Assembly: GCA_016871815.1 (NCBI GenBank)
Contig: VHBT01000003.1
Coordinates: 14,317 to 78,316 of the forward strand
Length of the DNA stretch: 64,000 nt
Direction: 5' to 3'
Origin: Candidatus Babelota bacterium
GTDB lineage: Bacteria > Babelota > Babeliae > Babelales > GCA-2401785
The notes beneath the pieces were generated by a model. That model was not told the DNA's origin and searched no databases. It saw nothing but the letters and a program-made list of their open reading frames with translations. Position 1 is the first letter of the stretch. The number at the start of each line of letters is the position of its first letter. This document shows positions 2,474 to 49,179 of this stretch, piece by piece. The translations under genes and the position numbers were made by a program.

Positions 2474-2945
2474 CTAACTGCACTTTGAAATAAGTTTTGC
2501 TGCCCTGGTAAAAGGCGCCACAGTATTAACGCGCACCCACTTTGACAATAGCCACCACACTCCGGATGGCAATTGCTGCCATGACCAAACGCCAACGGTA
2601 TCAAGTGTTCCTTCTTGATGCGCCTGCTCAACAATTTCCAGCACACGAATAATACATGCGCTCAAATTCAGCATCTTGTTGTTTACCACCATCAAACCAG
2701 TATTTTTCATAAAAATAGATTGCCATTTCCGTGTAACGCCACGAGGAAAATCCATCACCAGGCATGGACATGCGCTCACCACGCTTACCACATTCATACC
2801 ACTTAATAAGTCTACGCACCCATCCCATTTGATATGCAATGAGCTCTGCAGGACTTACATAACGACCAGTAAACAAAACACACCTACTATTACGCAGCTC
2901 AGAGGAACATCGTTAAACCTGATTGGTAAGTGTTGAATAAGCCAT
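2474..2945 (-). pseudogene. ClbS/DfsB (DUF1706) family gene, frameshifted
   Basis: Two overlapping minus-strand ORFs together rebuild the family. Frame A (2628-2876) reads ...RYVSPAELIAYQMGWVRRLIKWYECGKRGERMSMPGDGFSSWRYTEMAIYFYEKY. Frame B (2474-2839, C-terminal part) reads IIRVLEIVEQAHQEGTLDTVGVWSWQQLPSGVWWLLSKWVRVNTVAPFTRAAKLISK. A short MAYSTLTNQV* remnant lies at 2945. There is at least one frameshift and one premature stop. Confidence 0.65.
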
Positions 2946-3090
2946 AAAAACATTCTTTGCAAGCGGTGAATGAAGAGAAACAGACAACACAAAAAACCCC
3001 CACTGTTTTGAAACAATCTCAAGAAAAAAAAATCTCTAACGTCTCGCTACAGTTTTCTACCGAGACCATAAAACTCGAAAGTCTCTCTAT

Positions 3091-3124
3091 AAAAAAACGT
3101 CCAGAGTGTAAAAACTCTGGACGT
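3091..3124 (-). terminator. Intrinsic terminator of the rRNA operon
   Basis: On the minus strand: ACGTCCAGAG-tttttaca-CTCTGGACGT followed by TTTTTTT. It lies directly downstream of the 5S gene. Confidence 0.7.
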
Positions 3125-3133
3125 CATAATTAA

Positions 3134-3250
3134 TGTTGGCAATACTTATTTTCCCGTACCGTCACCAGTAAAGTATCTTCAGCGTATTGTATTTCACTTC
3201 TGTATTCGAAATGGGAACAGGTGTTTCCACAATACTATAGTCACCAACAA
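3134..3250 (-). rRNA. rrf: 5S ribosomal RNA
   Basis: The reverse complement reads TTGTTGGTGACTATAG...CCTGTTCCCATTTCGAATACAGAAGTGAAA...GTATTGCCAACA. This has the 5S helix I termini and the conserved CCGAAC/AGAAGTGAAA-type loop region. Ends are +/- a few nt. Confidence 0.9.
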
Positions 3251-3317
3251 ATTTTTCAAACTAATTGAAATCTTTGAAATATTTGAGAAAAATTAAATAA
3301 ACTTATAATAAATTAAT

Positions 3318-6322
<3,005 letters not shown>

Positions 6323-6424
6323 AAATTTGTAGTATTACCCCTAATTAAAGAAGTAATGAAAATTTTTCTGCTTACTTAGCACTTTTCTCAAATATTTCAA
6401 AGATCACAAACCATTATATTTTAC

Positions 6425-6501
6425 TGGTGGGCCCGAGTTGACTCGAACAACCGACCTCCCCGTTATCAGCGGGGTGCTCTAACCAGCTGAGCTACGGGCC
6501 C
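6425..6501 (-). tRNA. tRNA-Ile (anticodon GAU), CCA encoded
   Basis: Reverse complement: GGGCCCG-TA-GCTC-AGCTGGTTA-GAGC-A-CCCCG-CTGATAA-CGGGG-AGGTC-GGTTG-TTCGAGT-CAACT-CGGGCCC-ACCA. Clean cloverleaf with anticodon GAT. Confidence 0.93.
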
Positions 6502-6534
6502 TTATCAAAACAAAGCCTTAAACTACCAAAACCT

Positions 6535-6611
6535 TGGTAGGCCTAGGTTGACTCGAACAACCGACCTCCCCGTTATAAGCGAGGCGCTCTCACCTGCTGA
6601 GCTATAGGCCC
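6535..6611 (-). tRNA. tRNA-Ile (anticodon UAU), CCA encoded; occupies the spacer slot normally held by tRNA-Ala
   Basis: Reverse complement: GGGCCTA-TA-GCTC-AGCAGGTGA-GAGC-G-CCTCG-CTTATAA-CGGGG-AGGTC-GGTTG-TTCGAGT-CAACC-TAGGCCT-ACCA. The anticodon loop C-T-TAT-A-A gives anticodon TAT. G3:C70 rules out the Ala G3:U70 determinant. A73, C4:G69 and U12:A23 match the neighbouring tRNA-Ile(GAU). About 66 of 77 nt are identical to that tRNA. Confidence 0.85.
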
Positions 6612-6734
6612 AGCAACAGGCATTGTTAACTCGAACGAATTAACAAAATTTTAACGTCTGAACATGGACTCTTTACACATCTTTTACGATTTTTACATCG
6701 CAGACAAGTTTAACTTGTCTATTTTACTCCCTCG

Positions 6735-8268
<1,534 letters not shown>

Positions 8269-8393
8269 AAAAACTTAGAGGTCCATGTTCAGACGAATTT
8301 TCATTCAATCTATGGTTTCAATAATCTCAAAGATCAAAAATCTTTTTTTCTCTCGACTCAATCGCGCTTTCGCTTCGTTCGATCGATAACAAA

Positions 8394-8421
8394 ACTATAC
8401 ATCATTTTTTTCATTTTGCAA
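8394..8421 (-). promoter_or_regulatory. Candidate proximal rrn promoter (TTGCAA-N16-TATAGT)
   Basis: On the minus strand, TTGCAA (8421-8416), a 16-nt spacer, then TATAGT (8399-8394). It sits about 125 nt upstream of the 16S 5' end in an A/T-rich region. Confidence 0.4.
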
Positions 8422-8622
8422 GTTTTATTTTTTATTTTTTTATCATCAATTCAAGGCAAAAAAAATTACCGCATGAATTAACAAACCCAAAAACAATTCG
8501 TGTTTTTAAATTACGTGATATTTTTTAATATTGCAAATTTTTTTTACACAAACTTACTCAGAAAAACAAGCTACTGGTCGTCGTTTTTCAACTTCGTTTC
8601 GCATCAGCCATCAACAAAAACA

Positions 8623-8650
8623 ATTATAGGGATTTTAATTTGAGTTGCAA
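8623..8650 (-). promoter_or_regulatory. Candidate distal rrn promoter (TTGCAA-N16-TATAAT) with an A/T-rich UP-like tract
   Basis: On the minus strand, TTGCAA (8650-8645), a 16-nt spacer, then a perfect TATAAT (8628-8623). It is preceded by long A/T runs (8651-8690). Confidence 0.45.
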
Positions 8651-8748
8651 GCTTTTTTTTACTTTTTTTTCAAAAAACTTTTTTTTGCGCAAATAAACCC
8701 TAGACCCAGGGCAAAAAATACGATTAAGCTGCATAGTCTTAACCAAAC

Positions 8749-8782
8749 AAAAGGGGCGCACCCTAAAAGCACGCCCCTTTTG
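8749..8782 (-). terminator. Intrinsic terminator downstream of the 755-aa gene
   Basis: AAAAGGGGCG (8749-8758) pairs with CGCCCCTTTT (8772-8781). On the minus strand the stem is followed by TTTTGTTTGG. It lies 26 nt after the stop at 8808. Confidence 0.7.
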
Positions 8783-8807
8783 ACACTATATATATAAAGG
8801 AATATTT

Positions 8808-11075
8808 CTAAATATAGGAAATCGCTCCATAAATATCAAAGACCGCTCCAGCCAACACCTCAACTCTCAAGCTTCCAGAATCACTCAAGCAAATAGCATT
8901 TGCATCAACAGTACCCTCTGACGTAAACACAACCTTGTCATCAATAACAAGCACACCGGTTTGAAGTCTTGGCGAAGTTGATGTTCCATAGAACGTACAT
9001 CCATTCAAATACAAGCGAGAAGTTTGACTTGCCATTGTAAGTTGATTTTTCGAAGCAGAACCACCACGAGCCCCAAGCCCTGAGGAGTCATAGCTAAAGG
9101 TAACGTTTCTATCAACATACAAAGTCGACGCCGACTGAATAGCCAATGTTCCATTTGAAGAGAAAGCAAACGTATATCCCTTACCCTTAATATTAACATC
9201 ATTATAAATATTAATATTACCAGCAGAGAGAGTATAATTTCCCGCCAAGTTAAGATCCGTATTTCTAAGATTAATAACACCAGTATAGTCAACACATCGA
9301 ATCAAATTACGCGATGCAATGTAAGCCTCGGCAACACTATAAGTTGTTTTCGCACTCAAAGCTCCACTAGTCCCAACGTTAACAGCCCCAGTCAAACCCT
9401 CAACAACAACATCATCCAGCCACAAGTTAACCGGCGAACCAGCACCCTCTCCAGCTCCAACAGAAATACCAACAAAGTTAGAACTCAAGCTACCCAAGTT
9501 AAGCACATGACCACAACCCCGAATTGTTGATGCTGTAGATTGACCAGTAAACGACCATGTCATACTCAAGTCTTCTTTCGCACTCAACTCAATAGTAACA
9601 CCATTACCAAAGACCAATGAAGCACCAGAACCGAGAGAACAGCACGCCGAGCTAAAGTCTTTAAGCACAACGTTTTCCAAGGTCACGGTCTTATTGGCAG
9701 CAACCACAAGGGCTCCACTCTGACCCGTTCCACGAGCAAACTGAATAGAACGCCCACCACCATTCCAGGTAATATTACTTGCACTAGTTCCGCGGAAATT
9801 AAGAACCCTGTTAAGCCCACTAACACTTTCATCTCTAATCTGTTGATAAAATGCAGCATCAACAAAGATAGCACGCAGAGCTTCTTGACTCTCAACAACC
9901 CCACCATTAACAGAAATAACACTCACGCCATCAGGCTGAATAATATTAGACGCATCAGGCGAAGATAATGTGCTGTACTCAAGAACCGTATTATCAATTC
10001 TAAACACACCACCAGTATTTGCTCTTGCACTAAAGGTATACGAACCTGTTTCTACCGCGCAAGGCGCTCCGTAGAAATAGAACGTTCCCTGAGTAAGCGT
10101 ATAGTTAGCACCTAAAATAAATGTACAACCATTAAAGGAAACCGTTGAATACGAATCTTCCATTAAGAAGAAGCCTAATCCATTTGTAGAACCACCAAGA
10201 GGACCGGATATTGTTCCAAGTCCTTTAATGACACAATTATTAATTTCAAGAGTATGTCCCGCACGAACAACAATCGTTCCACAGGTAGACATATCAAGAA
10301 CCATACCATGACCATCAATAACCGAACGACTTCTTGTTTGCGCTGTTCCAAAACCTGCCGAACCAAACCACCAGGAACCACTCAACTTAAATGGAGCGGC
10401 AAGCTCAAGAGCACCGGCGTTAATCATAGACAATGTACCAGTCCAGGTAAGATCTCGACCAGGAAGAACCAAGCTTCTTAGTCCAAAATCAATATTTCCG
10501 CGACCAGAAAACTCAACATTCTCCGCAAGCGCCAAATGATCCCCAAGCACAATTGTTCCACCATTCATGGTCACACTCGCATTAAGCTTACCCTGAAGAG
10601 CCAAAGTAACCGAGGTACTTGAATCAGCCAAGACGATCGCAGAGCTAAATAAAGGAGCGCCCTCGATAGAATTTCCAGTGCCAGAAACCGTCACCGCCGG
10701 CAAAAAAGTTCCAGGAAGAGCACATAGCCTGTGAGAACCTGTTAATTTAATAGTATCTGTGGATGATCCATTATAAACACCAGTAAACAAAGCACGCGCA
10801 GTTCCTTGCTCCAACATTCCACTAGAAAAAGTAATCGCATCAGCAACGTCACCCTGAATTCTTGTTGAGGCCGCATTTGAAAGCTCAAGAGTTCCATTAA
10901 ATCCAGTTATTGCAGTATCAACAAAAAAGCGGCTGGTCGTATCTGCCAAACGCAATCTGGATTCTCGACTGGAAAAAACAAACGGCGCATAGACCTTTTC
11001 AGCCCCAACAGCCAACAAAACAGCTGTTAAAAAAAATCTTACAAGAAGCCCAAGCCCCTTACGCTGACTACTCAT
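8808..11075 (-). CDS. Secreted G/S/T/N-rich repeat protein, probable parallel beta-helix surface or adhesin-like protein
   Basis: 755-aa ORF with N-terminal signal-like segment MSSQRKGLGLLVRFFLTAVLLAVGAEKVYA. The composition is low-complexity and G/N/S/T/V-rich, with short irregular repeats typical of beta-solenoid passenger domains. It has its own terminator. The fold is inferred, not shown. Confidence 0.8.
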   Translation of the reverse strand: MSSQRKGLGLLVRFFLTAVLLAVGAEKVYAPFVFSSRESRLRLADTTSRFFVDTAITGFNGTLELSNAASTRIQGDVADAITFSSGMLEQGTARALFTGVYNGSSTDTIKLTGSHRLCALPGTFLPAVTVSGTGNSIEGAPLFSSAIVLADSSTSVTLALQGKLNASVTMNGGTIVLGDHLALAENVEFSGRGNIDFGLRSLVLPGRDLTWTGTLSMINAGALELAAPFKLSGSWWFGSAGFGTAQTRSRSVIDGHGMVLDMSTCGTIVVRAGHTLEINNCVIKGLGTISGPLGGSTNGLGFFLMEDSYSTVSFNGCTFILGANYTLTQGTFYFYGAPCAVETGSYTFSARANTGGVFRIDNTVLEYSTLSSPDASNIIQPDGVSVISVNGGVVESQEALRAIFVDAAFYQQIRDESVSGLNRVLNFRGTSASNITWNGGGRSIQFARGTGQSGALVVAANKTVTLENVVLKDFSSACCSLGSGASLVFGNGVTIELSAKEDLSMTWSFTGQSTASTIRGCGHVLNLGSLSSNFVGISVGAGEGAGSPVNLWLDDVVVEGLTGAVNVGTSGALSAKTTYSVAEAYIASRNLIRCVDYTGVINLRNTDLNLAGNYTLSAGNINIYNDVNIKGKGYTFAFSSNGTLAIQSASTLYVDRNVTFSYDSSGLGARGGSASKNQLTMASQTSRLYLNGCTFYGTSTSPRLQTGVLVIDDKVVFTSEGTVDANAICLSDSGSLRVEVLAGAVFDIYGAISYI

Positions 11076-11344
11076 ACTCTCCCCCTTCTCCTTAAGGATC
11101 TGTACCTATCAAAATCAAAAAGCAAACGTTAACTTAAATCGCTTCAAACAAAAACCGAGCACCTCTCAAAATAAGATAACGCCAACAAGACGAGCTGAAT
11201 GAGAGAATATGAGTCGGCGAAATAAAAAATCAACAAAAGCGAAGACTGCCAAACACCCAAACTGGCAAATAAAATAAAAACTCGCGGATTTAACTAAAAT
11301 TGACCCAATAAATAAACCGCTATAAACTCTGACTAATCTTAAAT

Positions 11345-11431
11345 GCCCAGGTGGCGGAATTGGCAGACGCGCTAGGTTCAGGTCCTAGTCTTGTTACAGA
11401 GGTAGGGGTTCGAGTCCCCTCTTGGGCACCA
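11345..11431 (+). tRNA. tRNA-Leu (anticodon CAG), long variable arm, CCA encoded
   Basis: GCCCAGG-TG-GCGGAATTGGCAGACGCG-CTAGG-TTCAGGT-CCTAG-(variable arm TCTTGTTACAGAGG)-TAGGGGTTCGAGTCCCCT-CTTGGGC-ACCA. Confidence 0.9.
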
Positions 11432-11512
11432 AAAAACCTTCTCACAACAATTTCTTAAGACTTCTACTAATTATTAAAAAACCACCACACAACAAAGCGA
11501 GACTCGTGCACC

Positions 11513-11541
11513 TTGCCACCAAACAACCCGTACGCTAAGAT
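11513..11541 (+). promoter_or_regulatory. Candidate dnaJ promoter (TTGCCA-N17-TAAGAT)
   Basis: TTGCCA at 11513-11518, a 17-nt spacer, then TAAGAT at 11536-11541. It lies about 60 nt upstream of the dnaJ ATG. Confidence 0.35.
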
Positions 11542-11602
11542 AAAAAATAATTATCTATCAAACCAATACTCATATTTTTTATAAAAAAACGAAAAGACAC
11601 CA

Positions 11603-12730
11603 ATGGCAAAACGCGATTACTACGATATTCTTGGAGTATCAAAAACATCAACCCCCGAAGAAATAAAAAAAGCCTACAGAAAGCTCGCCCTTCAATATCA
11701 CCCAGACAAAAACCCAAACAACAAAGAAGCTGAAGACAAATTTAAAGAAGCAGCAGAAGCATACGAAACACTTTCAGACCCTCAAAAGCGCCAACAATAT
11801 GATCAATTTGGTCATTCTGGGGCAGATTTTACTGGCGGACATCATTATTCAAACGCAGACGAAGTCTTTGAACAGTTTGGAGACATCTTTGGTTCGTTCT
11901 TTGGCGGAGGCCACCAATCTCGATCCCGCGCAAAAAAAACTTCCCCAACAGCACAAAACGGAAGCGACCTTAGCCAAGACGTAAGCATCTCACTTCAAGA
12001 AGCATTTCTTGGAACAAAAAAAGTAGTCGGCGTGTATCGCTACCAAACATGTACCGATTGTAACGCAACGGGCGGAGCTGACGGCGCAAAAGCAACGACT
12101 TGTTCAAGCTGCAGAGGACATGGTCAAGTTATGCATCAACAAGGATTCTTTTCTTTTGCAAAACCATGCACAACATGTAAAGGACAGGGAATTATCATTA
12201 CAAATCCATGCAAAACCTGTTCAGGGCAATCACGCGTACAAAAACACGAAAAACTCACCGTTACCATTCCAGCTGGCATCTTTGATGGCGCACAACTCAG
12301 ACTTGCAGAAAAAGGCGATGCCGGAGTCTTTGGCGGACGCTCTGGCGATTTGTACATCAGAACACATATTGCAGCTCACTCAACATTTACAAGACGCGAA
12401 AACGATTTAGTTACAAAACTCACACTGACATATCCACAACTTGTCTTGGGATGCCAAATCGAAATCGAATCAATTGACGGAACAAAAGAAACATTAAAAA
12501 TTCCATCAGGCTGCCAAGTTGGCAAAGAGATTGTAATGCCTGGAAAGGGTTTTCCCGTTCTTGGTAAAAATGCACGCGGCAACCTTGTGATAATCACACA
12601 ATGTCACATTCCAACAAAACTTACCGCTGAAGCAAAAAAAACATTACTCGAGTTTTCATCTCATATTGATACGCAAAACTCAAATTCAAATGACGGAATA
12701 ACCGGATTTTTTAAAAAATTTTTAGGATAA
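11603..12730 (+). CDS. dnaJ: Molecular chaperone DnaJ (type I)
   Basis: J domain [33 protein letters not shown], a G/F region [12 protein letters not shown], and four CxxCxG motifs ([33 protein letters not shown]). Confidence 0.95.
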
Positions 12731-12734
12731 AAAA

Positions 12735-13574
12735 ATGAACCATTACAAAAAAATACTATTACTTACATTCTCACTAATCATAAATTCAATTCACTCCACA
12801 GAAACAAGCGCCCCACACAAAGACATACAATCAAAAATTCTCTCCGAGCAACTCTACTTAGCGCAGCTTCCCCAAGAAACCCTTAATAAAGTCAATATAA
12901 ACAGCGAAGAACTTTCCTGCGACATGAACAACATAATTACCGAAATCTCAAGCTCAAATATCTCTAACAAAGAAAAACAATCTCTTCTAAATTTATTACT
13001 ACTCAAATACCTATCAATCGCTTACTTTAAATACACTCAAGACAACAAATCCCTAACCCTTTCTAGAATTGCGGAAATAAAAGACTCCCTTGATGAATAT
13101 AGCTTTTACAAAGACAAAAGCATCCACATATTCGAGTATCTAGCCGAAGGAACCTTTGCAGTCTGGCTCATGGCATCTTTTGTCTTAGCATTCACTCAAC
13201 CATCAAAAACTTTATTGATCGGCGAAAGTATAGTTTTATTAGGACTTGTCGCCTACCTCTGGCACAAAGAATACACATCTCCAATAACAAGACCAAAAAA
13301 ATACTGGGACGAAAAATTACTTCTAGAGCTTGCCGAAATCACAGACCATTATTTCTTAGGAATAATTAACAATTTAAAAGCATATCCCTCAGAAACAATA
13401 AAAAACCTTTGCTCAGAAGCAGAAAGCACCTACAAAGAATTAATGAATCACGGTTTTATGACTCAGCCAGATTTCATAACAGGAAAAAGGGAAATCCTTC
13501 AAAACGATCTAAAAACCTTTCACCAAATCCTTGTTGAATACAAAAAAAAGCTTCAAAATCGCATAATATCTTAA
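12735..13574 (+). CDS. Hypothetical membrane or secreted protein
   Basis: 279-aa ORF starting 4 nt after dnaJ. Signal-like N-terminus MNHYKKILLLTFSLIINSIHS and an internal hydrophobic pair (FAVWLMASFVLAF / LLIGESIVLLGLVAYLW). No recognisable domain. Confidence 0.7.
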   Translation: MNHYKKILLLTFSLIINSIHSTETSAPHKDIQSKILSEQLYLAQLPQETLNKVNINSEELSCDMNNIITEISSSNISNKEKQSLLNLLLLKYLSIAYFKYTQDNKSLTLSRIAEIKDSLDEYSFYKDKSIHIFEYLAEGTFAVWLMASFVLAFTQPSKTLLIGESIVLLGLVAYLWHKEYTSPITRPKKYWDEKLLLELAEITDHYFLGIINNLKAYPSETIKNLCSEAESTYKELMNHGFMTQPDFITGKREILQNDLKTFHQILVEYKKKLQNRIIS

Positions 13575-13582
13575 ACAAATAG

Positions 13583-13610
13583 TTAAGGGCTCAAGTTATT
13601 GAGCCCTTAA
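13583..13610. terminator. Hairpin between convergent genes (bidirectional terminator candidate)
   Basis: TTAAGGGCTCAA-gtta-TTGAGCCCTTAA, a perfect 12-bp stem between the 3' ends of 12735-13574 (+) and 13636-14568 (-). There is no strong U-tract. Confidence 0.5.
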
Positions 13611-13635
13611 ACGAATACACAACGAATAAAAAAAA

Positions 13636-14568
13636 TTATTTTTGAGCCGCTATAACCTTAGACAATAAGCCCTGTGCATCTTCGCATCCCACAGCAACTG
13701 CTTTTTCTAACCACCCTTGAGCTTTATTCAAATCAACCGGAACCCCAAATCCATTCGAGTAAACCAACCCCAAATTTGCCATCGCCAGACCCGAACCATT
13801 TTCTGCTGCAATCAAAAGAAACCTACGTGATTCGACATAATCTTGCGGAACACCAGTACCGTTAAAATACAAACAAGCCAAATTAAGAGCCGCATCATCA
13901 TGCCGCGAATTAATAGACAACGTCTTTTTATAATACCCTGCAGCCTTTTCAAATTGTTCTAACTTTAAATAAATCTGTCCCAAATTATATGCGCACGCAT
14001 CATCATTTTGCCGGCTTTTTTCCGCCAAAGACAGCCAATATAAAGCTTTATTATAATCAGGATGGACAGAGCCAAGACCATCCGTGCACATGACTCCCAA
14101 ATCTAATTGTGCGCAAGATTCTCCCTGATTAGCAGATTTTTCACACCAATAAAAAGCCTTATCAAAGTCTTGCACAACACCCTGTCCACAACGATATGCA
14201 TAAGACAACATATACTGAGCAAATGCATTACCACCCTCAGCAGCCTTTTCTGCCCAAGCAACAGATTTATTAAAATCTTTTTTTTGATAATATTCCAACG
14301 CAAGCTCAACTTGAGCATTAACATCACCGGCTTCTGCAGATTTTATCTTCAAGTCCTTAGAATAAAAAACAAACCCCAAAACCAAACTCAAAATAAGAAT
14401 AAATGGCATAATTAAAAAGACAAAACCCAACCGATTTTGTTTTATTTCAGCCCAAGAAAGATCCTTCCTCCAATAACGAGTACTCCCAAAAGCAGAATCA
14501 TGTTCACTTTCAAGAACCCAACCACTCCTTGCCCACGCCAACGCATCAAAAAACCATTTAAATTTCAT
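13636..14568 (-). CDS. Membrane-anchored Sel1-like repeat protein
   Basis: 310 aa with a TM segment LGFVFLIMPFILILSLVLGFVFY, followed by about six Sel1 units (e.g. AEAGDVNAQVELALEYY, AAEGGNAFAQYMLSYAYRCGQGVVQDFDKAFYWCEKSANQGESCAQLDLG). Confidence 0.85.
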   Translation of the reverse strand: MKFKWFFDALAWARSGWVLESEHDSAFGSTRYWRKDLSWAEIKQNRLGFVFLIMPFILILSLVLGFVFYSKDLKIKSAEAGDVNAQVELALEYYQKKDFNKSVAWAEKAAEGGNAFAQYMLSYAYRCGQGVVQDFDKAFYWCEKSANQGESCAQLDLGVMCTDGLGSVHPDYNKALYWLSLAEKSRQNDDACAYNLGQIYLKLEQFEKAAGYYKKTLSINSRHDDAALNLACLYFNGTGVPQDYVESRRFLLIAAENGSGLAMANLGLVYSNGFGVPVDLNKAQGWLEKAVAVGCEDAQGLLSKVIAAQK

Positions 14569-17186: not shown

Positions 17187-18584
17187 TTATTTGCCAAGAC
17201 AAAACGAAGAAAAAACTTGGTCTAAAACCTTTTCAGCGACATTTCTTCCGGTCATGCGAGAGAAAATTTCTAACAATTCATGTAATTGCGCTGCTGCGAG
17301 CTCAAATTGCTGATGAGGATACAAATAATCTCCAACCACCGTTAGTGACTGCTGAACTGACAGCAAAATATTTTTGTGGCGCTCATTTAACAAAAATGGC
17401 GATTCTTCGATCATGCACAATTGCACCACGTCTTGAATCTGCTTCCAAAGCTCATTTACTCCTTGACCGGAAAGCGCACTCACAGAAACATGAACAACCG
17501 GAAAAAGAATATTTAATCGTGCAAGCACGTCATAATCTATCGCGCTATCTATTTTATTCTTAACCACTAATAATTTATTACAACTCTCACGACTCAATCG
17601 AGCGTACAATTCATCTTCTTCTGCTGAGATTTTACGAGTAACATCAACAACCAAAACAACAAGGTCTGCTCGAGCTATTTCACTCAAAGAACGCTCGATT
17701 CCAATTTGCTCAACAACATCAAACGACTCTCTGATTCCAGCAGTATCAACAAACGTCACCAAAGCTCCATCTTTAACAACAGTTGCATCAACAACATCGC
17801 GAGTTGTCCCTGCAACATTTGTCACAATTGAACGGTTTGCTCCAACCAACCGATTAAACAAAGTTGACTTCCCGGCATTTACTGAACCGACACAAACAAC
17901 TCTAAAACCATTCTTCAAATGATTTTGTCTATCGCAATTTACAACCAACGTAGAAACAGAATCACAAACGGCATCATATTCTTTTTTTACCAGATGCGCA
18001 TACCCCAAGTCTTCATGTTCTTCTTCAACAAATTCAAAACTCGCCTCAACAAACGCTAGCAAGCGAACAATCTGCTCTTCGATTTCCGATATTTTTTTTG
18101 ATAACGAACCATCAACCTGCGCTAATGCACGATCTACAGCAACTTCATTTTGCGCAACAACAAGTTCGTGAATTGCTTCTGCTTGAACAAGATCAATTTT
18201 TTCATTTTCAACTGCTTGTCGAGTAAATTCACCTCGATCAGCAATGCGCGCCCCAGCAACAACTGCAGCATCTATAATTTTTTGAACGATAATCGGATTT
18301 CCGTGACAGGTTATTTCAACCGTATCAAAACCTGTAAACGTCTTTGGACCACGCATTATCAAAAATAAAACTTCATCGATTACCAACGTTGTCTGCGAAT
18401 CAACAACTCTTCCGTATCTGACAACATGACTTTCAAAATCAAAAATTGTTTTTTTAGCAGGAAACCGAGAAATTTTTTTTACTACTTCAAATGCATCGTG
18501 GCCTGAGATACGGATCAACGCCGCAGCCGCAGCGCCTTTTGCCGTACAACAGGCCACGATAGATTTTTGCTTCAGATCAATCAT
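17187..18584 (-). CDS. mnmE: tRNA modification GTPase MnmE (TrmE)
   Basis: 465 aa with G1 GSVNAGKST, G2 TTRD, G3 DTAG, NKID, and the diagnostic C-terminal C-L-G-K. It lies directly downstream of jag (conserved jag-mnmE synteny), overlapping it by 4 nt (18581-18584, ATGA). Confidence 0.93.
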   Translation of the reverse strand: MIDLKQKSIVACCTAKGAAAAALIRISGHDAFEVVKKISRFPAKKTIFDFESHVVRYGRVVDSQTTLVIDEVLFLIMRGPKTFTGFDTVEITCHGNPIIVQKIIDAAVVAGARIADRGEFTRQAVENEKIDLVQAEAIHELVVAQNEVAVDRALAQVDGSLSKKISEIEEQIVRLLAFVEASFEFVEEEHEDLGYAHLVKKEYDAVCDSVSTLVVNCDRQNHLKNGFRVVCVGSVNAGKSTLFNRLVGANRSIVTNVAGTTRDVVDATVVKDGALVTFVDTAGIRESFDVVEQIGIERSLSEIARADLVVLVVDVTRKISAEEDELYARLSRESCNKLLVVKNKIDSAIDYDVLARLNILFPVVHVSVSALSGQGVNELWKQIQDVVQLCMIEESPFLLNERHKNILLSVQQSLTVVGDYLYPHQQFELAAAQLHELLEIFSRMTGRNVAEKVLDQVFSSFCLGK

Positions 18585-27939: not shown

Positions 27940-30141
27940 TTATCTCAACGAACGATTTCGAGCATTTTTGATAATTTGTTCCAATCGCGGGTTTGATAAT
28001 TTTTGCTTACGCATCTGATCCAAGAAAATATCAAACGCTACATTTACATCACCCACACCTGGAGTCAACGTATACGGATATGAAACAACAAAATCATCAT
28101 CAACAGATGCTGTTACTTTATAATTTTCAAAAGCTCCATTGGTCATAGTCTTTAATGCAGTCAAATCTTTGTAGTGCGTTGCAAGTACATAATTTACTTT
28201 TTTATTCAAAGCAATTTCTGCACACAACTCAGCTGACAATAAAACCGCAGGATCAAATTCTGTACCACTAAACAATTCATCGGTTACCACAAGCATCTTT
28301 TCTCCGTCTTGCAATTCGTCTGCTTGCTTAAGAACAGAAACCACATCAAATGCTTCCGCCATAAACTTTGACTGATTATTTGCGGTGTCATCAACACTAG
28401 AAAATCGTGCAATAATTTTTTTGTACGGAGTTAAAACAAATTTTGACGCACAAGCAACACCAAAATTTTGTGCAAAAAGAACGTTAACCAAGAGCGACTT
28501 CATCGTAACAGATTTACCGGCAGCATTTGGCCCTGTAATAATCATATTTTGCGCATCATCAGAAGTTCTACCCAAAATAATTGAGTTTGACCTGACAACA
28601 GCTTGAGGCAAAATTGGATGCCACATGTCTTCTGCAATAATACGCGCTTCTGACGATTCTTCATCAAACTCTGCAAAACATGTTCTAATCGGAGCTCCGA
28701 TATCATTGGTTGCATTTTGCGTATCAACAATTAACTGCGCTATTGCTGCATACGCATCAACTTCACCATAAAATTGAACCGCACTCGAAAAATCGGAAAC
28801 TGTCTCGCCAAGTAACTTGGTCATATTCAATACTTTGGGATGACTAGCCGAAAGCATGCTATATTGTTGATCTTCTTTAAATGACGAACTTGAAGCCTTA
28901 CTTACAAGCTCTTGCCACTTTGCAGACAAGCTCGTTTCATACGATTGCAAATACTCAGAATTAACAACAGGCACTGCACTTGCATTCAAATAAGCGAGCA
29001 ATCCATCAATTCCTTTAACATATGTAGACAGTTTTTGAGCTGTAGCAAAAGCTTCTTCTTGATACTTTTTCATCCATTTAACAAGATTAAAAATACCATA
29101 ACAAAGAACAGCACAAAGAGCAGGCAAAGCAACTCTATCAATAATCGTGTAATCGGTTTTAGCTCCTTTGGTTATCCAACTCAATACAGCCTGCCCAGCG
29201 CCACGATAATTGGTCAAACATGCCAACCCAGCAACAGCCGAAAGGGTAAAATAACCGAGATACATCAAATTCTGCAGAATTACACCAAGGCTTCCTGCTG
29301 CTTCCGTCTGTGCAATCTTGCCAATCAAATAAAGTGCTCCAAATAATCCATTTCCGATCGCCATATTTTTAAGCCACGCATATCCAGCAGGATTAAACAA
29401 ATAAACGGCATAAAAAAGAGCTACCTCAAGACCAACAATCACCATCATTTTTTTAGCTTGAGACATCGCTTCAAAGGGATTTGGAGCCAACGGAATTTGA
29501 TTTGCCAAAGTATCTTCGTGCGCAGCGATTGAACGTAGTGAACTTTGGACATTTTTTAATAATGCAGGAGAATCAACAAGAGCCTTGATAAAGGCCTGTC
29601 TTCTTTTTACCACAGGAAGATTAACGTCAACTTGCGATGCCAAACCAACAAAACATGCTTGACCTGCTCGAGTAATTGTTTTTCCTAATGATCTTACAAC
29701 TGAATTTTGTCCATCTTTATTGGTGAGCTGCAAATCGGCCAACAATTTTATGCGAGATTTTCGGGCTTCAAATTCTGCGGTAGAAAAATATTTTTGAGTA
29801 GTAAGATCGTCCCACGAAATAACCATTCTATCATTCAACAAACTAATCAGCTTAGCATTTGTGCTGACAGGTAAAATCCCTTGAAACAGAGTCGTTTTAT
29901 CATTATTAATTAACGGTAATGTTAAAAACTGCGACACCAGAGCCAATTCTTTTTTTTGTAAACTTAAATGATTTTGCTCAATCATATCTTCTCCCAAACC
30001 GCTTGGAGCAACTAACAGCATCGCTGGCTGCATAACCAATATTCCCAACAACACTTGTGCAATTTTTTTCTTGTATGTAAAAAACACCTTTAATTCACCC
30101 TCTTTATAATTTTTAAAATTTCTACAAATTTTTATTAACAA
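27940..30141 (-). CDS. Membrane-associated MutS-related ATPase (MutS domain V only; no mismatch-binding domain)
   Basis: 733 aa. The C-terminal region is ITGPNAAGKSVTMKSL (Walker A, nt ~28507-28533), QSKFMAEAFD (MutS STFxxE signature), MLVVTDELFSGTE (Walker B) and LATHYKDL. The middle contains about four hydrophobic helices (MMVIVGLEVALFYAVYLF..., LGVILQNLMYLGYFTLSAVAGLACL, VALPALCAVLCYGIFNLV). It overlaps merR by 20 nt. Confidence 0.85.
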   Translation of the reverse strand: MLIKICRNFKNYKEGELKVFFTYKKKIAQVLLGILVMQPAMLLVAPSGLGEDMIEQNHLSLQKKELALVSQFLTLPLINNDKTTLFQGILPVSTNAKLISLLNDRMVISWDDLTTQKYFSTAEFEARKSRIKLLADLQLTNKDGQNSVVRSLGKTITRAGQACFVGLASQVDVNLPVVKRRQAFIKALVDSPALLKNVQSSLRSIAAHEDTLANQIPLAPNPFEAMSQAKKMMVIVGLEVALFYAVYLFNPAGYAWLKNMAIGNGLFGALYLIGKIAQTEAAGSLGVILQNLMYLGYFTLSAVAGLACLTNYRGAGQAVLSWITKGAKTDYTIIDRVALPALCAVLCYGIFNLVKWMKKYQEEAFATAQKLSTYVKGIDGLLAYLNASAVPVVNSEYLQSYETSLSAKWQELVSKASSSSFKEDQQYSMLSASHPKVLNMTKLLGETVSDFSSAVQFYGEVDAYAAIAQLIVDTQNATNDIGAPIRTCFAEFDEESSEARIIAEDMWHPILPQAVVRSNSIILGRTSDDAQNMIITGPNAAGKSVTMKSLLVNVLFAQNFGVACASKFVLTPYKKIIARFSSVDDTANNQSKFMAEAFDVVSVLKQADELQDGEKMLVVTDELFSGTEFDPAVLLSAELCAEIALNKKVNYVLATHYKDLTALKTMTNGAFENYKVTASVDDDFVVSYPYTLTPGVGDVNVAFDIFLDQMRKQKLSNPRLEQIIKNARNRSLR

Positions 30142-33697: not shown

Positions 33698-35308
33698 ATG
33701 GACAGAAAAAAACTTGGCCACATTATTGGCGGATCCTTGATTGACGGACTACTCATGCGTATGACGTCTGGCGCAGACATCGAAAATGCCAAAGCGGGCC
33801 GATTTGTCTGCATTGATGGCGGAACGTATCGTTTTTTTTCGCTTATTTCCAATATTGCCCTCGACTCAATCGGTGATAATTTTACAAAAACAACATTAGC
33901 CACAGAAAACTCATTTACCGCACAAATTCTGCGAAAAAACAATTTTTTTGCGACCTTGTTCATTAAACCACTTATCATGCTTGATGCAAAAAACAATTTA
34001 ATGCCGGTAAAAACCATTCCTCCTCACTGCGCACCGGTCTATGAAGCGCATGACTCGGAAATTGCACTTATTTTTGGCACCGAGCGCCCGGATAATCTTT
34101 TTTTCAATATTGGCACTCCTCTTGATATGAACACCCCAGTTTGCCTGGATCTCAACAAACTAACCGAACGAAGTAATGCTGTTTTTGGAAAAACAGGAAC
34201 GGGTAAAACATTTATCACCCGCATTTTGCTCGCAGGAATTTTAGCGAAAAAAGCTGGCGTAAACCTTATTTTTGACATGCATTCTGAATATGGACTACAA
34301 GCTCGCCAAGAGGGCAATAACAAAAAATTTGTGAAAGGTCTTAAAACCCTTTTCCCATCACAAGTTGCTATTTTTTCTCTAGACCCAGCCTCCACAAGAC
34401 GACGTGGATGCGCTCCAGACCAAGAAGTTGTTATCGGTTTTGATGAAATCACGGTCGATGACATCATGCTTCTCTCTGAAGAGCTCTCCCTTCATACTAC
34501 CGCTCTAGAAGCAGCATACCTTTTGCATACTCGATTCAAAAAAAACTGGCTCTCTATGCTTTTAAAAAACGAATCTTCGATCAAAGAACTTTCTAACGAC
34601 CTAGGAGCCCATCCTGAATCGATGGCTGCTCTTTTAAGAAAACTTAAACGACTTGAATACCTGCCCTTTCTAACTCAAGAAACTACCGAAAAATCGGTTA
34701 TTAAAAGCCTTCTTTCATATCTGGATCGCGGCATCAGTGTTATTTTAGAATTCGGACACCAAACATCTATGCTCAGTTATCTGTTGGTAACCGGGGTAAT
34801 TACCAGGCATATTCACCATCATTATGTAAAAAAAACAGAACAATACTTAGCAGACCCTGCAAACCAACCAGAACCCCATAAATTAATGATAACCATCGAA
34901 GAAGCACACAAATTTTTAAATCCTCAGGCAGCAAAACAAACTATTTTTGGCACAATCGCCCGAGAATTGCGAAAATACTACGTATCGCTCTTAATCGTTG
35001 ATCAGCGACCATCTAGCATTGATTCTGAAGTCTTATCCCAGGTGGGAACAAAACTTATTGCACAACTTAATGATGAACGAGATATCCAAGCTGTTCTTAC
35101 CGGAGCACCCGACAGCGTAAGCTTAAAATCCGTGCTGGCAACCCTTGACTCAAAACAACAAATATTAGCTCTCGGACACGCTCTTACCATGCCGATAGTC
35201 TTAAAAACGCGAAAATTTGATGAAACTTTTTACAAAGATGTCTCTGAGATAAGCCTTCCGGGGGGAACCATTCTCTCAACCAAGGAAAAAATCGATACAA
35301 TTTTTTAA
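33698..35308 (+). CDS. HerA/FtsK-superfamily P-loop ATPase (HerA-like, DUF87-type)
   Basis: 536 aa with Walker A FGKTGTGKTFI (nt ~34187-34210), Walker B LMITIEEAHKFL and the HerA-typical LLIVDQRPSSIDSEVLSQVGTKLIAQLNDERD motif. Confidence 0.8.
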   Translation: MDRKKLGHIIGGSLIDGLLMRMTSGADIENAKAGRFVCIDGGTYRFFSLISNIALDSIGDNFTKTTLATENSFTAQILRKNNFFATLFIKPLIMLDAKNNLMPVKTIPPHCAPVYEAHDSEIALIFGTERPDNLFFNIGTPLDMNTPVCLDLNKLTERSNAVFGKTGTGKTFITRILLAGILAKKAGVNLIFDMHSEYGLQARQEGNNKKFVKGLKTLFPSQVAIFSLDPASTRRRGCAPDQEVVIGFDEITVDDIMLLSEELSLHTTALEAAYLLHTRFKKNWLSMLLKNESSIKELSNDLGAHPESMAALLRKLKRLEYLPFLTQETTEKSVIKSLLSYLDRGISVILEFGHQTSMLSYLLVTGVITRHIHHHYVKKTEQYLADPANQPEPHKLMITIEEAHKFLNPQAAKQTIFGTIARELRKYYVSLLIVDQRPSSIDSEVLSQVGTKLIAQLNDERDIQAVLTGAPDSVSLKSVLATLDSKQQILALGHALTMPIVLKTRKFDETFYKDVSEISLPGGTILSTKEKIDTIF

Positions 35309-35463: not shown

Positions 35464-38400
35464 ATGGTAAAAACGCACAAAATCGCTTATTTTTTACTCG
35501 TTTTACAATTTTTACAACTCACAGGGGGTCTCTTCTGTGGGGGTGAAGTTATTGTTGATGCCCCAGAAATCATGGAAACAGATCTCCCAAGCGCAAACAA
35601 ATTCAAACAAATTCAACGACAATGGATCAGGGTAGATGTCTCCTCAAAAAAGAAAGTCGTTTCATTTGATTCAGCGCCAACTGATATTGAAAAAGTTATT
35701 TCCGGCGGTAAAAGCTCTCTTCCAAAACACCGCAATAACGTACTCAATTTTTTCATAGAAACAAGCTCTAAAAACAAATCATTAGTACATTTTTCCAAGG
35801 AACGAGACTGGGAAGATCTTCAGCTTTTTAATGCAAAAACAACGTTACTAGATTCGTGCTGCAGAACAGCGACAACCTCTGGTGAAGTTCTCATGGCAGG
35901 ACTTATCACGCATCGCCCATCGATTCAAACAAGTCTAGATAGACGCGATTTTATTTCTGCTCTCAGCGCAAAACAAGACACCAGAGATATTCTCCGAAAA
36001 CAAGTTAACCGCTTCTCATTAGTTGAAGAAACCTTTTTTAGCCTCACAATGCAACCCGAAGATCCTGTCATTCGGGCTTCAATCGACGATCTAAAACCAA
36101 AACTAGAAATTCCTGGCCTCTTAAAATTTTTATTATTTTTAGGACAACCCGTTGCGGCCTTAGAGCTCTGCGGCCTTGAATATCTTTTTAAAAAAACAGG
36201 CTCAATGGATAAAATTATTAATAATCCAGAATTCATACGATGGCATGCAATTATCACCCAAAAAACAGCTCACTATTTTTGGAACCCACTAATAAATCAA
36301 TTATTAGTTGGCTGTTATTTTATTATAAATCCATTACGAATGAATAACGGAATTGCATTCGCCCTACTCAGGAATAACTTCAGAAACGCTATTGTATCTT
36401 TTGACAAAGATAAAGACACGCAAACCCTTGTAAGCACAATGTTTAAAAACATTCCGTTACAATTAAACTCTCCCGAAAACCAAATCCCACCATACACTGG
36501 GCCCGCAAACGATCCAGTGGCACAATTTATTCATTCAATTCCATATCGCGCTAAACAAGGAATGATCATAACAAAACCAATTTTTACCATAGCGTGGTAC
36601 ATTGCAAAAAAAATGTGGCTTGGAAATTTTACCAACACAAATGTTTTTCCCCTCTCTCCGTTAAAAGGTTTCAAGTCTCTTCTTTGCCTTGTAAACGATT
36701 TATTCTTTTGGAACACAAATGAGCTCAGACAAGCTATCTGTGACAGTAAGCCTACTCCGCCATCAACAAGCGCAAGCGCAGCAGAAAAACGCTCCTGGGA
36801 AAATCCCGGAGTATTTGATGGGCCTTATTTATCATGGTCTTTAAACGAACACACTCACACAAGCCCATTTATATACGCTGCTCACTCATTACTCAGACTT
36901 ACACACAAATCTTTTTTTCATGAAGATCCAACATCAAAAGCCGACTTTGTAACCGATCAATCTACAAAAGAAAAACTAAAACAAATTGCGATTAACCATA
37001 TCGAAAAAGTCAAAAAGGAAAATCCTGGGAATACAACAGCTCAAAACCTATTGGACAGACTCAGCCTCATTACAAAACCAACTGATACCTATATTGACTA
37101 TCTTTCTTGGTGGAAAAACGTTGGAACACAAACAATTAAAAGCCTATGGAATACCTTTATTGCGCCAAATCAACTCTCAACAATCGATGAATATGCTCAA
37201 TTAATTCCACGCAAAGATGATTTAAAGGAAATTTCAAGCTCACTTCTTGGGATTCTTTCTCATTATAAAAACTCTCCGCCAGAAAGAACCAGTCCCAGCC
37301 GTGGTCATGCAATCACCCAAATGACTGCATGGTTTGTCATCAGTATTTTATTTGGGCGTTGGCTCGATAGACACTTAAATCCTAAAGAACGTGTTGATGC
37401 AATCGACAAAATTATTTTTAGCGCAACAAAACCTGCGATGGTTTTATTATCTGCAACTTCAGAAATTTTTGATGCACTTACAACAAACGCACATCATTTT
37501 ATTTTTCCACCAAGCTTAGCTTCTAAGCTCGCTCTCTTCAAAACAACCTCATCTCAACATGCAGATCTTATCTCCTACTCAAAAGATAAAACATTTACTC
37601 AAAAAACAGGTCATACCATTTTTGATCATATTGGAAAAGTTCGCACAGCATACGACTTAATCCAAACACCGGATGCAAAAAAACTACTGGCTCTGTGTAT
37701 TCATATTATCGCAGAAGTTGATTGCTATCTCAGTGTTGAAAAATTATCAGAAGAATTTAGCTCAACAGAAAACAAAGTTTCACCAGTTGAATTCATTAAT
37801 GCTCAATCACCATTTATCAACATAAAAAATGGATGGTTTCCTCTGTTTGGAACCAAGTCAATCGGAACCGATTTACTTATGGGAAATGGGCACTCAGAAA
37901 ACATTCTTCTCACCGGTCTTAATGGTGGCGGAAAATCTATTCTACTCAAAAACATTGTCTTCAATTTAATGTTTGCTCATGCGTTTGGCTGGGCATTTGC
38001 AACTTCATGCACGATCACTCCTTTTTCTCAACTTATTCTTCACTTAAATTCTCTTGATAATGCAGCAGAAGGAAAATCTCGTTGGGTTGCAGAAGCTGAA
38101 GCAATCGTAGACATGATCAAAGCAGCTCTAACTCAACGATCTGCACAATATTTTATCTTTGCCTCGGGCGATGAGCTCGGAGACGGAACCGCTGCACAAG
38201 CATCTATTAATGTTATGACAAAATTATTAAAAGCTTTTTCTAGTCAAAAACACGTTCTTTCTATCATTTCATCTCACCTCCAACCATTAACAGAACTCGA
38301 AAAAACAATCACTCGACTAAAAAATTGTCGAATCAATCAACAGCGAAAACTTGAAGACGGAATCAATAAGACAAATATCGCATTAGCAATTTTTGAAAAA

Positions 38401-38508
38401 TTTAGTAACACCCGTACAGATGAAAATGGTTTTGCAGCCCTTTTGGCAAAAGAAATTGCCGCGCAAGAAGAGCAAGATCAAAACTCTTTTTCTCTTATAA
38501 GCACATGA
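35464..38508 (+). CDS. Giant membrane-anchored MutS-domain-V ATPase paralogue (1014 aa)
   Basis: N-terminal signal or anchor MVKTHKIAYFLLVLQFLQLTGGLF, followed by a long unique region with hydrophobic segments. The C-terminal region is LLTGLNGGGKSILLKN (Walker A, nt 37915-37941), KSRWVAEAEA, FIFASGDELGDGTA and ISSHLQPL. Confidence 0.85.
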   Translation: MVKTHKIAYFLLVLQFLQLTGGLFCGGEVIVDAPEIMETDLPSANKFKQIQRQWIRVDVSSKKKVVSFDSAPTDIEKVISGGKSSLPKHRNNVLNFFIETSSKNKSLVHFSKERDWEDLQLFNAKTTLLDSCCRTATTSGEVLMAGLITHRPSIQTSLDRRDFISALSAKQDTRDILRKQVNRFSLVEETFFSLTMQPEDPVIRASIDDLKPKLEIPGLLKFLLFLGQPVAALELCGLEYLFKKTGSMDKIINNPEFIRWHAIITQKTAHYFWNPLINQLLVGCYFIINPLRMNNGIAFALLRNNFRNAIVSFDKDKDTQTLVSTMFKNIPLQLNSPENQIPPYTGPANDPVAQFIHSIPYRAKQGMIITKPIFTIAWYIAKKMWLGNFTNTNVFPLSPLKGFKSLLCLVNDLFFWNTNELRQAICDSKPTPPSTSASAAEKRSWENPGVFDGPYLSWSLNEHTHTSPFIYAAHSLLRLTHKSFFHEDPTSKADFVTDQSTKEKLKQIAINHIEKVKKENPGNTTAQNLLDRLSLITKPTDTYIDYLSWWKNVGTQTIKSLWNTFIAPNQLSTIDEYAQLIPRKDDLKEISSSLLGILSHYKNSPPERTSPSRGHAITQMTAWFVISILFGRWLDRHLNPKERVDAIDKIIFSATKPAMVLLSATSEIFDALTTNAHHFIFPPSLASKLALFKTTSSQHADLISYSKDKTFTQKTGHTIFDHIGKVRTAYDLIQTPDAKKLLALCIHIIAEVDCYLSVEKLSEEFSSTENKVSPVEFINAQSPFINIKNGWFPLFGTKSIGTDLLMGNGHSENILLTGLNGGGKSILLKNIVFNLMFAHAFGWAFATSCTITPFSQLILHLNSLDNAAEGKSRWVAEAEAIVDMIKAALTQRSAQYFIFASGDELGDGTAAQASINVMTKLLKAFSSQKHVLSIISSHLQPLTELEKTITRLKNCRINQQRKLEDGINKTNIALAIFEKFSNTRTDENGFAALLAKEIAAQEEQDQNSFSLIST

Positions 38509-45296: not shown

Positions 45297-45498
45297 TACC
45301 CCTCAAAAAATCAAAAATACAAGAGTCAAGGTATTATAAAATTTATACCAACACCAACAGATTGGCCGATTCAATGCCGCTTTTTTTGAAAACTATCTTG
45401 TCATGCTTCAAACCGCTTACCTAGACTATCATATAGGCATACGGCTGGTAATCTGGCAAGGATGCCATGCTCTGTGTTTCATACATAACGGGGGGGTT

Positions 45499-47856: not shown

Positions 47857-47863
47857 CACAATT

Positions 47864-47906
47864 AAATAACTGCGCATATACTACCTATGCGCAGTTATTT
47901 TTTTTA
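47864..47906 (+). terminator. Intrinsic terminator of lon
   Basis: AAATAACTGCGCATA-tactacc-TATGCGCAGTTATTT followed by TTTTT. Confidence 0.8.
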
Positions 47907-47918
47907 TGTTAGCTCGCT

Positions 47919-49049: not shown

Positions 49050-49179
49050 ATAAAATGTTTTTTCAACAAAAGCAGCTCTTTTAGTAAAAAAGAAGACCCC
49101 CTTTTGAAGCTTTGTTTGCGATAAGCCATACTACAAAAAGTGCTGAGTTGGCCGCGTTATTCTGGGGAGAAAAATAATT

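Follow-up and report, generated by a model that had tools for sequence, protein, structure and literature searches.

The spacer between the 16S and 23S rRNA genes in a lineage of the candidate phylum Dependentiae (TM6) encodes two isoleucine tRNAs, one with the anticodon UAU and one with the anticodon GAU. We propose that the first is a functional tRNA-Ile(UAU) that was duplicated from the spacer tRNA-Ile(GAU), is co-transcribed with the rRNA and reads AUA directly as the main or sole decoder of that codon, an account to which, taken as a whole, we give a probability of roughly 0.8. This is a rare known type of tRNA, now found in a new phylum and in a new genomic context, the rRNA spacer.

The window, by which we mean the whole stretch of 64,000 nucleotides that was analysed, belongs to a MAG with the NCBI locus tag prefix FJ366. 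The open reading frame (ORF) beside its 16S gene encodes a protein of 755 aa identical to MBM3894181.1, ‘hypothetical protein FJ366_01115 [Candidatus Dependentiae bacterium]’, and homologues of its Lon protein at 58–60% identity carry the NCBI names Candidatus Dependentiae or Candidatus Babeliales. Dependentiae are reduced, host-dependent parasites of protists (PMC4776705, PMC6561590). ARAGORN predicts six tRNA genes across the 64 kb, two of them between the rRNA genes, and the operon reads, on the minus strand, 16S, tRNA-Ile(UAU), tRNA-Ile(GAU), 23S and 5S, with the following features:

8623–8650, minus strand: promoter-like site TTGCAA-16 nt-TATAAT upstream of the 16S gene, a putative promoter by consensus scan only
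8394–8421, minus strand: second promoter-like site upstream of the 16S gene, likewise putative and by consensus scan only
6735–8268, minus strand: 16S rRNA gene (Rfam RF00177, 1497.6 bits, full length)
6535–6611, minus strand: tRNA-Ile(UAU), proximal to the 16S gene (ARAGORN; Rfam RF00005, 65.2 bits, full-length alignment)
6575–6577, minus strand: anticodon UAU of the 16S-proximal tRNA (RF00005 alignment)
6425–6501, minus strand: tRNA-Ile(GAU), proximal to the 23S gene, the parent paralogue (ARAGORN; Rfam RF00005, 69.1 bits)
3316–6322, minus strand: 23S rRNA gene (Rfam RF02541, 2679.1 bits, full length)
3134–3248, minus strand: 5S rRNA gene (Rfam RF00001, 79.8 bits)
3096–3125, minus strand: terminator-like hairpin and T run after the 5S gene (consensus scan)

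The first-pass annotation of this DNA had read the spacer as a UAU and GAU pair replacing the usual isoleucine and alanine tRNAs, and had given the anticodon loop of the 16S-proximal tRNA as CTTATAA. Both readings hold: ARAGORN and Rfam each call two complete tRNAs, the RF00005 alignment (gathering score of the family, 29 bits) prints the loop as CUUAUAA, ARAGORN assigns Ile(tat), and ARAGORN predicts no tRNA-Ala, whether in the spacer or elsewhere in the 64 kb. The canonical bacterial spacer, with tRNA-Ile(GAU) and tRNA-Ala(UGC), likewise holds two co-transcribed tRNAs between 16S and 23S, one of them tRNA-Ile(GAU), whereas here the two isoleucine tRNAs stand alone, in the window as in four relatives described below, the tRNA-Ala(UGC) being absent, the UAU paralogue taking the 16S-proximal slot and the GAU tRNA adjoining the 23S gene. 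The consensus scan finds promoter-like sites before the 16S gene and a terminator-like site after the 5S gene, with none on the minus strand between the 16S and 23S genes, and co-transcription of the tRNAs with the rRNA would follow from this layout. Both tRNAs would then be transcribed from the operon promoter and released during rRNA processing, so that the AUA decoder would be produced in step with ribosomes.

The tRNA-Ile(UAU) folds into a full RF00005 cloverleaf (model positions 1–71) in which all 21 stem pairs are standard, has an encoded CCA end and scores within the range of the other tRNAs in the window. Across both paralogues, 84 of 84 cloverleaf pair cells are standard pairs. Minimum-free-energy folding gives a non-cloverleaf alternative for part of each spacer tRNA; as is usual for tRNAs, we preferred the covariance-model alignment. 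The two spacer tRNAs were described earlier as about 86% identical, and they share 66 of 77 positions (85.7%) in the window and about 90% in relatives. Also borne out are the G1-U72 wobble and the G3-C70 pair in place of the alanine determinant G3-U70, both present in the sequence and the pair table, and the near-identity of the anticodon stems, which have four of five pairs in common and differ solely at position 29 (U in the UAU tRNA, C in its neighbour). Of the two further arms said to be identical, the variable loop (AGGUC) is so, but the T arm differs at position 65 (C65 versus U65). The differences between the paralogues that fall in stems (pairs 1-72, 6-67, 7-66, 29-41 and 49-65) all preserve pairing.

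Both tRNAs also have in common an unusual, lineage-specific T stem, GGUUG/CAAC, and this, together with the variable loop and the anticodon stem, supports the earlier suggestion that the UAU tRNA is a duplicate of tRNA-Ile in which G34 became U. The simplest history that we can read from the alignment would be a tandem duplication of the spacer tRNA-Ile(GAU), a change from G34 to U in one copy and then a few later changes, which in the UAU copy would be those fixed at positions 17, 20a, 26, 29, 65, 67 and 72, the ones in stems keeping their pairing.

The body of the tRNA-Ile(UAU) is of isoleucine type, with A73, C4-G69, U12-A23, A37 and A38 and without G3-U70, and its loop CUUAUAA offers the A35, U36, A37 and A38 of an IleRS substrate. 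The identity set of the Escherichia coli IleRS, reportedly worked out by Nureki et al. in 1994, is said to include A73, C4-G69, U12-A23 and C29-G41. Of the E. coli elements, A73, C4-G69, U12-A23, A37 and A38 are all present in the tRNA-Ile(UAU), whereas C29-G41, an identity element established for the E. coli enzyme only, is found in the GAU neighbour and is replaced by a still paired U29-G41 in the UAU tRNA. G1-U72 and U29-G41 are invariant in the UAU tRNA of five lineages, and neither occurs in the GAU paralogue; an invariant body with these two pairs may tune charging or decoding.

The comparison of rRNA spacers among relatives that had been suggested for this locus reveals the identical arrangement in four related lineages. 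A JGI metagenome contig is 100% identical to 11.1 kb of the window (2735–13834), both tRNAs included (L002). A metagenome scan with a pattern built on the lineage-specific T arm, the wobble base left free, recovered three related operons (L019, L036 and L068), all in the order 16S, tRNA(UAU), tRNA-Ile(GAU), 23S, 5S, and synteny look-ups added L083, an ENA assembly that independently represents the L036 lineage, and L093, a 222-kb contig from a fifth lineage. The arrangement is thus present in independent assemblies from JGI, ENA and NCBI. Relatives of the source MAG include GCA_964522385.1 and the JGI contigs Ga0335034_0000015 (222 kb) and Ga0214921_10000638. Identity of 16S to the window is 98.7% for L093, 95.9% for L019, 95.0% for L068 (partial) and 94.6% for L083, and the five lineages form roughly one genus-level clade. 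Farther out, proteins related to the 755-aa neighbour at 50% and 38% identity and to GluRS at 64% and 61% have no rRNA operon adjoining them, and several MAG contigs end at the 16S gene.

Within the clade, the UAU tRNA is identical at 77 of 77 positions in all five lineages. In the GAU tRNA, as many as four positions vary among relatives, with a compensatory change from G7-C66 to A7-U66 among the differences; the non-tRNA part of the spacer is 67–85% identical in the same lineages, with indels, and orthologous proteins are 53–93% identical (MnmE 56%, DnaJ 78%). As judged from these alignments, the comparison shows purifying selection on the UAU tRNA at least as strong as that on the essential GAU tRNA. 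That a 77-nt tRNA is conserved within a clade of about genus rank speaks strongly for a function without proving it.

AUA itself is a regular codon of this organism. It accounts for 193 of 17,211 codons in 39 ORFs of the window, which corresponds to 11.2 per 1000 and 16% of isoleucine codons, a high usage by the classes of a recent TilS study (PMC12514573). The use of AUA in the window had been noted in the first pass with the example of ATA at 12753–12755, which is indeed codon 7 of the ORF starting at 12735; that ORF (12735–13574, plus strand, 279 aa) has 14 AUA among 278 codons, or 50 per 1000, about 4.5 times the window average. The G+C content of the window is about 38%, with a strong negative GC skew throughout 1–64000 (−0.10 to −0.28), and codon choice depends on the strand, ATC being nearly absent in minus-strand genes and common in plus-strand genes.

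The meaning of the codon was read from homologues. The conserved part of Lon contains three AUA codons, at which 76–94% of 119 homologues carry Ile, and in codon alignments of five window proteins with orthologues from four relatives, 34 AUA codons of the window face Ile codons 19 times, Val codons eight times and AUG not once; in the same alignments, AUG faces AUG in 48 of 63 cases. Residues aligned with AUA in homologues are thus Ile first and Val or Leu second. By these alignments, AUA is shown to be regularly used and to stand for Ile in this organism.

The Lon ORF as listed (817 aa) probably starts about 32 codons early (region 45403–45500, plus strand), homologues being about 785 aa long, and its first three AUA codons fall where most homologues have no sequence. 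It opens an unusual tandem array of Lon paralogues (45403–57550, plus strand), in which the gene for a canonical Lon protease comes first, then one for an AAA-only protein (47919–49049), then three for large proteins that resemble Lon and have AAA+ and Lon_C domains (49180–50940, 50955–53687 and 53789–57550, plus strand). Elsewhere in the window, three large proteins that match MutS domain V only surround a HerA/DUF87-type ATPase in a possible defence or DNA-maintenance module:

27940–30141, minus strand: member of the MutS domain V / HerA-DUF87 group
33698–35308, plus strand: member of the same group
35464–38508, plus strand: member of the same group
38519–42238, plus strand: member of the same group

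A protein of 1097 aa with eukaryotic-type dual-specificity phosphatase domains (58207–61500, minus strand) is plausibly a host-directed effector.

Isoleucine tRNAs with the anticodon UAU are known but rare, AUA being read in nearly all bacteria by a tRNA modified to lysidine; other carriers include Mycoplasma mobile, Bifidobacterium, Neorickettsia and some lactobacilli. The first-pass annotation put them in only a handful of lineages, which understates their spread: tRNADB-CE listed 19 bacterial species in 2014 (PMC4013482), and our own scan added genes in several candidate-phyla-radiation (CPR) groups and in Oscillospiraceae. TAT tRNA-Ile genes occur in nine species of three clades without tilS and in a few species with both (PMC3575796), and a 2026 preprint still terms them ‘rare cases’ (10.64898/2026.02.03.703510). 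In this UAU-tRNA pattern scan, with one genome per species, 11 loci were found; all belong to other lineages, and not one lies in an rRNA spacer or beside rRNA genes. Among them are tRNA-Ile(UAU) genes in CPR MAGs (Sungbacteria, Dojkabacteria, Saccharibacteria and Uhrbacteria) and in Oscillospiraceae (contigs L005–L008, L010, L013 and L014; L011 and L012), and at the Oscillospiraceae loci the gene adjoins a CUA-anticodon tRNA and a tmRNA gene. In the literature searched, coverage of which was incomplete, we found no report of a UAU tRNA-Ile in Dependentiae or of an rRNA spacer that holds a UAU/GAU pair.

The scans also returned isolated 3′ halves of tRNA-Ile(GAU), running from the anticodon loop to the CCA end without a 5′ half, on unrelated, mostly soil metagenome contigs; these look like attachment-site duplicates from elements that integrate into tRNA-Ile:

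L017, L018, L022, L031–L034, L038–L041, L044–L047, L057, L074, L076, L078: contigs with 3′-half tRNA-Ile(GAU)

How a plain UAU anticodon can read AUA is known from two experimental systems. In M. mobile, U34 of tRNA-Ile2(UAU) is unmodified, and on the ribosome of this species the tRNA binds AUA but does not bind AUG (Taniguchi et al. 2013, PMC3575796); UAU tRNAs are poor substrates for IleRS of the E. coli type, and the M. mobile enzyme, with Arg (Arg865) at the position of E. coli W905, charges its UAU tRNA (PMC3575796). M. mobile is likewise host-associated, with a reduced genome and a genomic UAU tRNA-Ile, and a TAT anticodon encoded in a genomic tRNA-Ile gene, one mark of TilS-independent AUA decoding of the M. 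mobile type, is what the Dependentiae operon displays. In M. mobile (Mycoplasmatota), the absence of tilS, the plain U34, the IleRS Arg865 and the ribosome-dependent rejection of AUG have been shown, whereas the Dependentiae case is known from sequence, its gene sits in the rRNA spacer and it is a recent paralogue of tRNA-Ile(GAU).

The second system took the same route as the one proposed here. According to PMC3919564, which cites Fabret et al. 2011, a Bacillus subtilis tilS deletion was rescued by a change from GAT to TAT in a tRNA-Ile1 gene; a copy of tRNA-Ile1(GAU) thereby gains U for G34 and its body stays of the tRNA-Ile1 type. U34 of the suppressor tRNA is unmodified though other U34 residues are modified, AUA is bound strongly and AUG weakly (Kohrer et al. 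2013, PMC3919564), Ile is misincorporated for Met about once in 1000, and, of the two suppressor strains, JJS80 has a growth rate comparable to that of wild type (PMC3919564). The Dependentiae tRNA has the features of such a wobble-mutated tRNA-Ile1, with a GAU-derived body (86–90% identity to its neighbour) and U in place of G34. The suppressor, however, is a laboratory mutant selected after the loss of tilS and stands one base from its parent, whereas the Dependentiae copy is natural, fixed in its clade and has at least seven further fixed differences from its parent.

The alternative that survives best holds that tilS and tRNA-Ile2(CAU) are retained and that the spacer tRNA-Ile(UAU) is a supplementary AUA reader, for which we see a chance somewhat short of even. 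About 98% of annotated bacterial genomes contain tilS (PMC12514573), and both tilS and tRNA-Ile(TAT) occur in Lactobacillus casei, L. plantarum, Cyanothece PCC 7424 and Ferrimonas balearica (PMC3575796), where the genomic UAU tRNA-Ile may overlap with the lysidine pathway; PMC3575796 does not report these TAT genes as rRNA-spacer genes. The sequence covered here, about 64 kb and the syntenic flanks, belongs to a genome that is probably larger than 1 Mb. Against redundancy stands the invariance of the UAU tRNA, which exceeds that of the essential GAU tRNA and fits an indispensable tRNA better than a spare one, and redundancy is less expected in the reduced, host-dependent genomes of Dependentiae (PMC4776705, PMC6561590). 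Moreover, neither of the two lysidine-pathway genes turns up in the clade sequence examined: tilS is absent from the 64-kb window and from about 45 kb of additional syntenic flanks, and a CAU-anticodon tRNA is absent from the window and the clade loci. IleRS is likewise not encoded in the window or the flanks examined; an enzyme that accepts U34 would have Arg or Lys at the position equivalent to E. coli W905, or be of type 2. Exact-protein look-ups lengthened the right flank by about 10 kb (L079) and the left flank only slightly (L081), and these extensions hold no tilS, IleRS, tRNA-Ile2(CAU) or tRNA-Ala. A literature search linking Dependentiae with tilS or lysidine, again of incomplete coverage, found nothing. 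We consider the odds slightly in favour of tilS and tRNA-Ile2(CAU) having been lost in the clade, and about even for the stronger claim that the clade lacks both and relies solely on an invariant operon tRNA-Ile(UAU) derived by tandem duplication of tRNA-Ile(GAU). Were tilS present, the tRNA-Ile(UAU) would shrink to a redundant extra tRNA.

Eukaryotic cytoplasmic tRNA-Ile(UAU), the gene of which has an intron, carries pseudouridines at positions 34 and 36; it is likewise an isoleucine tRNA dedicated to AUA, whereas the Dependentiae gene is without an intron. A comparable arrangement in Dependentiae, in which U34 is modified, to pseudouridine as in the eukaryotic tRNA or otherwise, and the modification sets both AUA specificity and IleRS recognition, appears unlikely to us. 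Such a modification would be in keeping with the observation that nearly all U34 residues in sequenced tRNAs carry one (PMC3919564), a modification enzyme that recognises the tRNA could account for its being 100% invariant over its whole length, and the window encodes MnmE:

17187–18584, minus strand: MnmE, GTPase of the cmnm5U34 wobble-uridine modification (NCBIfam TIGR00450, 346 bits)

The organism can therefore modify U34. If U34 became of the xm5U type, though, the tRNA would be expected to read AUG too; xm5U types favour G-ending codons, which would be harmful here. U34 is unmodified in M. mobile and in the B. subtilis suppressor, the two bacterial cases in which the RNA itself has been studied (PMC3575796, PMC3919564), and in the suppressor it stays plain despite MnmEG (PMC3919564). 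The tRNA-Ile(UAU) would have to escape the xm5U34 pathway in the manner of the B. subtilis mutant tRNA. By analogy with these two systems, we favour a plain U34 that, as in both of them, would bind AUA strongly and AUG weakly on the cognate ribosome, with tRNA-Met competing for AUG; the fidelity mode of M. mobile and of the suppressor probably applies here, and the tRNA-Ile(UAU) would be the main, possibly the sole, AUA decoder of the clade.

The two remaining readings were rejected. A decaying or neutral duplicate of tRNA-Ile(GAU) with a chance wobble mutation would look like a close paralogue with G-U pairs (1-72 and 29-41) that its parent lacks, as this tRNA does, but its invariance across five lineages and independent assemblies, amid flanking spacer that has diverged by 15–33% with indels, rules out a decaying copy or an assembly artefact for practical purposes, and both are further contradicted by stem changes that all keep pairing and by a score of 65.2 bits within the range of the window’s tRNAs; what chance we leave to a pseudogene or artefact is very small. 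Codon reassignment, in which the UAU tRNA would insert Met (the meaning of AUA in many mitochondria) or a different residue, is just as improbable on the codon alignments, since a UAU anticodon can in principle pair with both AUA and AUG but AUA aligns with Ile, secondarily Val or Leu, and in none of 34 cases with AUG, while AUG stays AUG, and the tRNA body is of isoleucine type.

A functional, AUA-reading tRNA-Ile(UAU) in the rRNA operon has consequences beyond this locus. The reading of AUA by a plain UAU anticodon without turning AUG into Ile is so far understood from M. mobile and the B. subtilis suppressor, and the Dependentiae lineage would be a third case, natural and from a different phylum, in which the tRNA is visibly derived from tRNA-Ile(GAU) and its sequence is frozen. 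The few differences fixed between the paralogues are candidates for what determines charging and the discrimination of AUA from AUG. For the annotation of uncultured phyla, spacer tRNAs should not be presumed to be Ile and Ala, and the UAU/GAU spacer provides a simple marker for this Dependentiae clade. With its gene in the rRNA operon, the AUA decoder would be supplied in step with ribosome output, an unusual arrangement for a minor-codon tRNA. If the clade does rely solely on this tRNA, lysidine-free AUA decoding would have arisen independently in bacteria one more time, nature would have repeated the B. subtilis suppressor experiment, and G1-U72 and U29-G41, both fixed, would be adaptations by which charging is tuned or U34 is kept from reading AUG.
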